Shown one piece after another: positions 28,723-29,364 of a DNA stretch of 64,000 bases. The position numbers and the translations under genes were made by a program. The first letter of the stretch is position 1, and every line of letters begins with the position of its first letter. Under the pieces are notes generated by a model that did no database searches, had not been told where the DNA came from, and worked only from the letters and a program-made list of their open reading frames with translations. Origin of the DNA: Deltaproteobacteria bacterium (GTDB lineage Bacteria; Myxococcota_A; Polyangia; Haliangiales; Haliangiaceae); assembly GCA_043716635.1 (NCBI GenBank), contig JAYSYE010000622.1:1044-65043 (forward strand), given 5' to 3'.

Positions 28723-29364
28723 ATGAAGGACGAAACCAAACTCCAGCGTGTCGGCGAGCTCGCCCGAGCGGTCGGGAAGACCGTGCGCGCGATGCACCTC
28801 TACGAGGAGCTGGGTCTCCTGGAGCCCCGCGCCCGGTCCGAGGGCGGCTTTCGCCTGTACGGGCCGGAGGCCGTGGACCGGATTCACTGGATCACGAAGC
28901 TGCAGGCGATCGGGTTCACGCTGGGCGAGATCCAGGGCTTCGTCCGCGACTTCCAGCGCGCCGGCTCGGGCCGCGAGGCCACCGGTCGCGTGCGCGCCGT
29001 GTTCGCCGAGAAGCAGGCGCAGATCCGCGAGCAGATCACGCAGCTGCGCGTCATCGAGAACGACCTCGCCGAGGCCGTCGCCTACCTCGACAGCTGCCAG
29101 ACCTGCAGCGACGAGCACGCCCCCGCGGCGTGCGGCGTCTGCGAGCACAACGGACACTCGAAGGGCGACGCCCCGCCGCTCTTCGCCGGACTCTCCACCA
29201 AGCCCGCCGGCCGGCGCGTCAGCGCTGCCGCAGGGCAGCGCGATGTCGCTGACAGCGGGGTACGCCTCGCTGTCAGCGCTGCCGCAGGGCAGCGCGATGT
29301 CGTCGACGTGCGCGTAAGCGAAGTCACCCGCGGCCGCGACGAGCCGACGGAAGGTCATAACTGA
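28723..29364 (+). CDS. MerR-family transcriptional regulator with a C-terminal CxxC-x9-CxxC cluster
   Basis: MerR HTH ([27 protein letters not shown]...GGFRLYG), a coiled-coil dimerisation helix, then [18 protein letters not shown]. The stop overlaps the iscS ATG (TGATG). Confidence 0.85.
29218..29302. repeat. two 31-bp direct repeats (54-bp period), each with an 8-bp hairpin, plus a 10-bp-stem hairpin between them
   Basis: GTCAGCGCTGCCGCAGGGCAGCGCGATGTCG occurs at 29218-29248 and 29272-29302. GCTGACAGCG (29248-29257) pairs with CGCTGTCAGC (29268-29277). Confidence 0.8.

Follow-up and report, generated by a model that had tools for sequence, protein, structure and literature searches.

To our knowledge, the feedback control of iron-sulfur (Fe-S) cluster assembly is understood almost entirely through proteins of the Rrf2 family (IscR, RisR) and two kinds of SufR. 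In Escherichia coli, erpA, the gene of an A-type carrier, is a target of IscR. SoxR is, as far as we know, the sole MerR protein that holds an Fe-S cluster. The locus described here lies in a window of 64,000 nucleotides (nt) from a Deltaproteobacteria bacterium of the Haliangiales (GenBank assembly GCA_043716635.1, contig JAYSYE010000622.1, positions 1,044 to 65,043 of the forward strand), where the first gene of an isc operon, at 28723-29364, encodes a MerR-family regulator. On balance, the comparison of this gene with about 45 related genomes suggests that a distinct MerR subfamily is a dedicated, autoregulated transcription factor of the Fe-S biogenesis operons in Polyangia, in the role that Rrf2 proteins (IscR, RisR) have elsewhere. 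The MerR type of the protein, the conservation of its cysteines, its adjacency to iscS and the accompanying dyad together make a different sensor fold in the job of IscR the best reading.

The first-pass annotation of the window started from the premise that iscR is the first gene in characterised ISC systems. This premise fails for Myxococcus xanthus, where iscR is missing from the isc operon and repression is exerted in trans by RisR, an Rrf2 protein whose gene lies beside suf (PMC9973013). RisR is a holo-repressor of both isc and suf, and its site, TtGAC-N7-GTCCt with AT-rich flanks, covers the isc -10 element and the transcription start (PMC9973013).

The regulator of the window resembles E. 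coli IscR in being encoded by the first isc gene, in a putative autoregulation, in a putative cysteine-ligated sensor logic and in a regulon that would reach an A-type carrier. In contrast, IscR has an Rrf2 winged helix instead of a MerR fold, three cysteines and one histidine instead of four cysteines, and another operator. RisR comes from the same phylum, and the start region of isc is covered by its site in M. xanthus and by a dyad here; it differs in belonging to the Rrf2 family, in being encoded at suf while the M. xanthus isc operon contains no regulator gene, and in its site. The SufR proteins, [4Fe-4S] suf repressors of cyanobacteria and actinobacteria, are likewise non-Rrf2 DNA-binding folds that were recruited independently and head an Fe-S operon, and one clade of the present family also heads sufBCD. 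However, their DNA-binding folds are different (references in PMC9973013), and there is no sequence relationship. MliR, a MerR-superfamily protein and the sole MerR-like one with a tie to iron homeostasis that the literature searches turned up, has neither effector domain nor cysteines, is unlinked to isc or suf and belongs to another subfamily. By fold the regulator is a MerR protein, by role it would stand closest to IscR, RisR and SufR, and by the predicted position of its ligands closest to SoxR.

Protein architecture and the cysteine motif

The regulator gene and the parts of its product are located as follows:

28723-29364, + strand: MerR-family regulator gene, first of the isc operon (213 amino acids (aa) from the ATG)
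28747-28944, + strand: winged helix-turn-helix (HTH), aa 9-74 (Pfam, alignment)
28969-29097, + strand: long coiled-coil dimerisation helix, aa 83-125 (AlphaFold2, predicted local distance difference test (pLDDT) 94-97)
29095-29142, + strand: Cys4 motif C125-x2-C128-x8-C137-x2-C140, then E-H-N-G-H (alignments)
29170-29196, + strand: conserved short helix APPLFAGLS, aa 150-158 (P151, L153 and G156 invariant)
29218-29307, + strand: in-frame 54-nt tandem duplication in the disordered linker (two 36-nt copies)

A GTG at 28711 is an alternative start; the ATG is favoured by the N-termini of homologues and by the 99%-identical protein P0001. The protein matched the Pfam families MerR_1 (1.9e-12), MerR-DNA-bind (1.3e-10) and MerR (5.4e-08), MerR_1 and MerR above the gathering cut-offs, and gave no Rrf2 match in Pfam or NCBIfam. 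This search with family hidden Markov models bore out the assignment of the first gene to the MerR and not the Rrf2 type. The MerR-DNA-bind match (aa 51-117) spans most of the dimerisation helix. The AlphaFold2 model, built with an 80-sequence alignment, showed a MerR architecture with a mean pLDDT of 81.7, a short helix (aa 152-158) after the cysteine loop and a tail that is disordered from about residue 160. By Foldseek, the model matched CadR, CueR and BmrR with a probability of 1.00.

Conservation was followed in three alignments reaching down to about 35% identity: A1 with 69 distant sequences, A2 with 80 mixed sequences and A3 with the 18 most divergent ones. The recognition-helix residues T20, R22, A23, H25, Y27, E28 and E29 are invariant in the family (A2), and the four cysteines are invariant in all three. 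The cysteine string had been quoted correctly by the first-pass annotation (aa 125-145, nt 29095-29157), but its spacing had been given as CxxC-x9-CxxC. Since eight residues, SDEHAPAA, separate the two CxxC pairs, the motif is CxxC-x8-CxxC. The motif starts at the last residue of the modelled helix 83-125, in agreement with the earlier placement of the cysteines after the dimerisation helix, and its loop has a pLDDT of 77-85.

The 120 closest homologues come mostly from metagenome-assembled genomes (MAGs) of Kofleriaceae and share 67-99% identity with the regulator in the aligned region. Of these, 119 have C-x2-C-x8-C-x2-C with identical spacing, followed by [DE]-H-[HN]-G-H...APPLFAGLS, which argues against a chance motif. 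The search of 1.84 billion cluster representatives gave 859 matches below 1e-10, and relatives at 35-55% identity retain the four cysteines, followed by P-x-L-[VFI]-x-G. Among the 489 retrieved homologues of at least 140 aa, 462 have the motif, 394 of these with the exact 2/8/2 spacing. Conservation of the cysteines thus extends through the orthologues and far beyond them. A histidine within three residues of the motif is common but not invariant (367/462), and an acidic residue follows the motif in 339 of the 462.

In CueR, ZntR and SoxR the metal or cluster is held directly behind the dimerisation helix, and the cysteine loop occupies exactly this place. Both SoxR and the regulator combine a winged HTH with a coiled coil and place cysteine ligands directly after the dimerisation helix. 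Both cysteine strings begin with L-D-x-C-x-x-C, as judged by eye; the likeness stays at that level because BLASTP against E. coli SoxR aligned just the HTH. The SoxR motif is C-x2-C-x-C-x5-C in contrast to C-x2-C-x8-C-x2-C here, and the NCBIfam model of SoxR, TIGR01950, scored 37.3 bits against a cut-off of 116.9. SoxR activates soxS through a dyad in a long spacer; the regulator gene has a 17-bp spacer with dyads on either side of its promoter, and at the carrier gene a dyad overlaps the -10 element. The putative target also differs, being the Fe-S assembly machinery itself. The SoxR analogy of the first-pass annotation therefore stands for the location of the cysteines and falls for the motif and the promoter layout.

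By sequence and by structure, CueR, ZntR, CadR, PbrR and MerR were the best matches, with alignments across the HTH and the coiled coil. Their ligand loops cannot be aligned with that of the regulator, no metal-efflux genes lie near the regulator, and its promoter has the 17-bp spacer. The NCBIfam equivalogs remained below their cut-offs: CueR 65.3 vs 147.4, MerR 63.3 vs 150.9, ZntR 53.7-59.5 vs 143-168 and CadR 56.8 vs 151.5 bits. A dedicated family model was not found, as Pfam and NCBIfam gave just generic MerR or sub-threshold metal-sensor matches; the label PF28507, carried by a few relatives, was not reproduced by the Pfam search. By sequence and fold searches of the PDB, no solved structure covers the Cys4 loop; only the HTH and the coiled coil align. 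In full-text literature searches no account of a MerR protein that regulates isc or suf was found, and a 2024 review of bacterial metal sensing has none among its 'unconventional' MerR proteins. These results point to a previously undescribed MerR subfamily in a new role.

In the Kofleriaceae regulators (window 29290-29364; L001-L034) a variable low-complexity linker is followed by [FY]DVP[VL]xxL[YF]REGNN, and the tail in the window is a diverged version of this FDVPVTVL-type C-terminus. The codons of FDVPVTVL differ at synonymous positions, which argues for selection on the protein level, and the REGNN ending is fixed by the ribosome-binding site of iscS. Polyangiales relatives (P0274-P0386) have no C-terminal tail; they carry an N-terminal extension with [RKQ]LP[VLI][LIV] instead. 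LPPVK is the chaperone-docking motif of IscU, and by analogy the terminal peptide of the regulator may be a docking peptide in a similar style. The 54-nt duplication of the linker is lineage-specific, also occurring in P0001 and absent from the 190-aa P0002. Each of its 36-nt copies holds a hairpin with an 8-bp stem, GCGCTGCC-GCAG-GGCAGCGC. A dispersed element of the repetitive extragenic palindromic type was considered and rejected; only two copies occur in the window, both local, so the repeat is a local tandem duplication.

Promoter, dyads and the putative regulon

The elements upstream of the regulator gene and at a second promoter of the window are:

28293-28323, + strand: intrinsic-terminator-like hairpin and T-run after the BON-domain gene (14-pair stem with 11 G-C pairs, then ACTTTTGTGG)
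28614-28631, + strand: site 1, upstream dyad CCTCACC-TTGA-CGTGCGG, adjoining the -35 element on its 5' side, 72 bp from site 2
28639-28667, + strand: sigma-70-type promoter TTGACA, 17-nt spacer, CATAGT (10/12 matches)
28686-28703, + strand: site 2, main operator-like dyad CCTCACG-TATG-CGTGAGG (perfect 7-4-7, no mismatches)
22382-22399, - strand: site 3, dyad CCTCACG-TGAG-GGTAAGG, in a 59-nt divergent region
21934-22359, - strand: second A-type Fe-S carrier gene (erpA/iscA-like; Pfam Fe-S_biosyn 4.3e-17)
22419-23606, + strand: rhodanese-ThiF fusion (MoeZ/MoeB-like sulfur-carrier activating enzyme), divergent from the carrier gene

The TTGACA-17-CATAGT promoter was the sole site found by the promoter scan in 28200-29500 (mean of 0.0 in shuffled sequences). 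With its own predicted promoter and a terminator after the preceding gene, the merR-isc unit is expected to be transcribed separately. When the 160 nt upstream of the regulator were aligned from 35 loci, little was conserved outside four blocks. The column identities were 0.99 for TTGACA, 1.00 for CATAGT, 0.80 for the site 1 dyad and 0.84 for the site 2 dyad, compared with 0.51 for the spacer and 0.41-0.62 for the flanks.

The dyad is an 18-bp 7-4-7 inverted repeat, CCTTACG-N4-CGTAAGG, with the consensus AACCTTACG-Tnnn-CGTAAGGGTT. Site 2 spans roughly +12 to +30, its first base being 19 nt past the -10 hexamer and its last base 20 nt short of the ATG. It was present in all 42 loci compared, the isc-linked and suf-linked distant relatives included, and 9 of the 26 columns of the 42-sequence alignment are invariant. 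Each of the 34 related Kofleriaceae loci has an equivalent of site 1, CCyyACG-TAAA-GGTrAGG, at a distance of 71-73 bp on the 5' side of site 2. This spacing corresponds to about seven helical turns, which would put both sites on the same face of the DNA. Within the window alone, the number of dyads was not significant (3 matches vs 1.3 expected with up to two mismatches), and the weight of the dyad therefore rests on the cross-genome footprint.

Site 3 overlaps the predicted -10 element (TTGCCA-17-TAAGGT) of the second A-type carrier gene and was conserved wherever this gene was present, in 20 related loci and in the window (21/21). The carrier gene may thus be a member of a putative regulon, to which the divergent rhodanese-ThiF gene may also belong. 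If both divergent genes were members, Fe-S carrier supply and sulfur-carrier activation would be under the same regulator.

The classical mer operator has the 7-4-7 dyad geometry. The regulator is very probably the operon's own, acting through the dyad, as judged from the sequence comparisons. Autoregulation is the simplest model because the invariant recognition helix matches a nearly unchanging operator, the 7-4-7 geometry is mer-like and the RisR site is different. In MerR-type activation the dyad operator lies within a -35/-10 spacer of 19-20 bp and the DNA is distorted; this classical layout does not apply here, the spacer being 17 bp in the window and in the related loci. Repressors are also represented in the MerR family by HspR, GlnR/TnrA and CarH. 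The regulator probably represses, since the spacer has the optimal 17 bp instead of 19-20 bp and the dyads occupy the start region, adjoin the -35 or overlap a -10 element, all of them typical places for a repressor.

Linkage to Fe-S biogenesis operons

The genome scan, with one genome per species, yielded 34 close relatives of the regulator. These are Kofleriaceae/Haliangiales-type MAGs, except for two contigs with vague or doubtful phylum-level labels. One contig labelled as Acidobacteriota (L013, JBLMXA010000275.1) holds an 82%-identical copy in full Kofleriaceae synteny and is probably a binning error, not a cross-phylum occurrence. Thirty-three of the Kofleriaceae loci continue beyond the gene, and in each of them the regulator directly precedes iscS-iscU-iscA-hscB-hscA-fdx. 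The usual 5' neighbours are a Ser/Thr kinase, RNase Y and sometimes the BON-domain gene.

Among the 13 distant relatives (38-55% identity in A2 and in the representative search), the regulator heads an Fe-S operon in every case, with unrelated upstream neighbours. The operon is iscSUA-hscBA-fdx or -iscX in 11 of them and sufB-sufC-sufD-sufU-sufT in the other two, which form one clade (L046 7001-11942; L049 6001-7075). Source names for the family were Sandaracinaceae, Polyangiaceae, Polyangiales, Polyangia and 'Myxococcota'. As both isc and suf linkage were found, the link is to Fe-S biogenesis as such and not to one operon, and it has been retained through extensive genome rearrangement. The survey of merR-iscS adjacency proposed by the first-pass annotation thus returned the arrangement in the 33 Kofleriaceae loci and the 11 distant isc loci, to which the two suf loci are added. 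The regulators of the suf-linked clade are about 40% identical to the isc-linked ones, and the same dyad precedes them at a distance of 26 nt. The regulator of L049 has a DUF1289 gene as its immediate 5' neighbour. In another distant relative (L040 2560-2883) a frataxin/CyaY gene was found about 4 kb upstream of the merR-isc operon.

The operon of the window is composed of the following features behind the regulator gene:

29347-29366, + strand: translational-coupling junction, with the iscS Shine-Dalgarno sequence GAAGGT in the last regulator codons, then TGATG
29364-30656, + strand: iscS, cysteine desulfurase (NCBIfam IscS equivalogs 648-670 bits, above cut-off)
30683-31078, + strand: iscU, scaffold (NCBIfam 206 bits, above cut-off)
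31083-31541, + strand: iscA, A-type carrier with an Ala/Pro-rich N-terminal extension (Pfam/NCBIfam)
31519-32067, + strand: hscB, co-chaperone
32101-33978, + strand: hscA, Hsp70-type chaperone
33985-34428, + strand: fdx, [2Fe-2S] ferredoxin

Both the completeness of the operon and the TGATG overlap, as first described, were recovered. The overlap is real because the stop codon TGA (29362-29364) and the iscS ATG (29364-29366) have one A, at 29364, in common. In related loci the last regulator codons (GAA GGA AAC AAC) are the Shine-Dalgarno sequence of iscS, and most of the 34 loci show GAAGGA or GAGGG together with a regulator stop that abuts or overlaps the iscS ATG.

Low-complexity extensions rich in Ala, Pro, Ser and Thr, absent in canonical orthologues, were observed on IscS, IscA and the ferredoxin (29364-29440, 31083-31220, 34330-34428). 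IscS is extended by about 25 aa and IscA by about 45 aa, both N-terminally, and the ferredoxin carries about 30 additional aa at its C-terminal end. An SRPBCC (polyketide-cyclase-like) gene at 34425-34901 overlaps the fdx stop and looks like an extra gene at the end of the operon; none of the 34 related loci has a counterpart. A gene of an Fe-S carrier ATPase of the Mrp/ApbC/NUBPL type (38497-39585) lies 4 kb 3' of the operon, with no dyad nearby. On the 5' side, the BON-domain protein gene (about 27100-28323) encodes a very long N-terminal low-complexity region rich in Gly, Ser, Gln and Arg.

Alternative explanations and proposed mechanism

The Cys4 site could hold a [2Fe-2S] or [4Fe-4S] cluster, rubredoxin-like iron, structural or redox-switch zinc, or a thiophilic toxic metal. 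An Fe-S cluster is favoured by the association of the gene with ISC or SUF in each context examined, by the lack of nearby genes for efflux or detoxification and by the parallel with every other known regulator of these operons; the chance of this ligand is put at about even. Alternatively, the operon regulator may carry structural or redox-active Zn(II), or form disulfides in its two CxxC pairs, and report thiol oxidation or oxidative stress instead of cluster occupancy. The cysteines have a common zinc-knuckle spacing, and the acidic residue or histidine near the motif would suit a mixed metal site. Fe-S biogenesis genes are also induced by oxidative stress (PMC9973013). However, the knuckles do not have the usual CPxCG signature, no Pfam zinc-finger match was obtained, and ISC/SUF linkage in every genome examined is the pattern of cluster-sensing regulators, so that this explanation is considered unlikely. 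A sensor of toxic metals of the CueR/ZntR/CadR type (Cu, Zn, Cd), which would boost Fe-S assembly when thiophilic metals poison clusters, agrees with the best NCBIfam and PDB matches (CueR, MerR, ZntR, CadR, PbrR) and with the pipeline label 'copper efflux regulator'. It is improbable, as the equivalog scores were 37-65 bits against cut-offs of 117-168 (PRK versions higher) and the matches span the HTH and coiled coil, stopping before the cysteine loop. In addition, a gene of an efflux pump or metallochaperone was found near the regulator in none of the loci, and the 17-bp spacer with dyads outside is not the 19-20-bp activator layout.

Two other explanations concern the dyads. In one, the operon is controlled in trans by an Rrf2 protein (RisR/IscR-like) encoded elsewhere, the MerR protein is accessory or has other targets, and the dyads belong to another protein. 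The arrangement has a precedent in M. xanthus, where isc is repressed by the suf-encoded RisR (PMC9973013), and the inspection covered about 64 kb of the genome and 10 kb on either side in relatives. In those regions no Rrf2 homologue was detected: tblastn with E. coli IscR and NsrR gave only chance matches in the 64-kb window (E of at least 0.79) and nothing at E <= 0.01 in 590 kb of related loci (+/-10 kb). The dyad CCTTACG-N4-CGTAAGG is unlike the RisR site and was present with the merR gene in every isc or suf context that was examined. A RisR-type candidate in the promoter spacer of the window, TTGAC-N7-GTCGA, is one mismatch from the motif and was rejected as chance because it is conserved in no other locus. 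Trans control of this kind is therefore rated as quite unlikely; the 'replacement' of IscR is nevertheless a hypothesis, because the M. xanthus operon without iscR is still under Rrf2 control from elsewhere. In the other explanation, the palindrome at 28686-28703 is a hairpin of the 5' untranslated RNA, for translational control or similar to an iron-responsive element. Site 2 does lie downstream of the predicted transcription start and ahead of the ATG, and its RNA could fold into a 7-bp stem capped by a 4-nt loop. However, sites 1 and 3 place the dyad in untranscribed or -10-overlapping DNA. Meaningful covariation was not seen, as three of the seven pairs never vary and the sole pair that changes on both sides is unpaired in 14 of the 42 sequences. 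With no Rfam match in addition, an RNA element is highly improbable. On these grounds the dyad is read as a protein-binding operator, in which the sequence itself and not the base pairing is maintained.

Several points weigh against a cluster-sensing MerR repressor of its own operon. The cofactor is not readable from sequence, CxxC-x8-CxxC is a typical zinc-knuckle spacing as well, and the AlphaFold2 model is a monomer. Site 1 of the window is degenerate, with one mismatch per half-site. Binding of the regulator to the dyad is suggested by their co-occurrence only, and the isc, suf and carrier promoters are where sites of a trans-acting Fe-S regulator would be expected too; a gene of the Rrf2/RisR type may be encoded outside the 64-kb window and the 590 kb of loci scanned. 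Activation is the classical mode of MerR proteins, so that repression by this one is a guess drawn from where the dyads lie. Finally, JGI pipelines label relatives as 'copper efflux regulator', a label that rests on family-level similarity only. Homologue searches returned between 1,186 and 1,568 significant matches each, so that well above a thousand database entries are probably mislabelled in this way.

In the proposed mechanism of the MerR regulator, a dimer would bind the dyads through the invariant recognition helix, and sites about seven helical turns apart could cooperate. It is the replete form that represses in the case of holo-IscR at isc, holo-RisR and SufR (PMC9973013). From this analogy and from homeostatic logic, the repressing, DNA-binding form would be the one with the Cys4 loop loaded with an Fe-S cluster delivered by the ISC machinery. 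If the cluster were lost because of iron limitation, oxidative stress or high demand, merR-iscSUA-hscBA-fdx and the carrier gene would be derepressed. In its most extensive form, which is tentative and held at somewhat less than an even chance, the proposal describes a second, independent Fe-S-binding MerR lineage. Its members would be holo-repressors that replace Rrf2 as master regulator of ISC (in one clade SUF) across Polyangia, with a 7-4-7 operator and a regulon including an A-type carrier and possibly a sulfur-carrier activating enzyme. The terminal peptide (C-terminal FDVPVTVL, or N-terminal RLPLL in other orders) might dock to an ISC chaperone or the desulfurase for cluster loading.

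The proposal is testable, given a small protein, a putative operator delimited to the base, cysteines that suggest themselves for mutagenesis and cultured relatives such as Haliangium (Kofleriaceae, NCBI taxonomy). If it is true, the MerR-fold regulator would be a further independent solution to the control of Fe-S assembly. Fe-S chemistry in the MerR family would then extend beyond SoxR, and the MerR fold would be paired with a promoter layout of the repressor type. Among the myxobacteria, M. xanthus uses the suf-encoded RisR and the sister class Polyangia has a MerR gene in the isc operon, which fills part of the picture of how Fe-S supply is controlled in this group.

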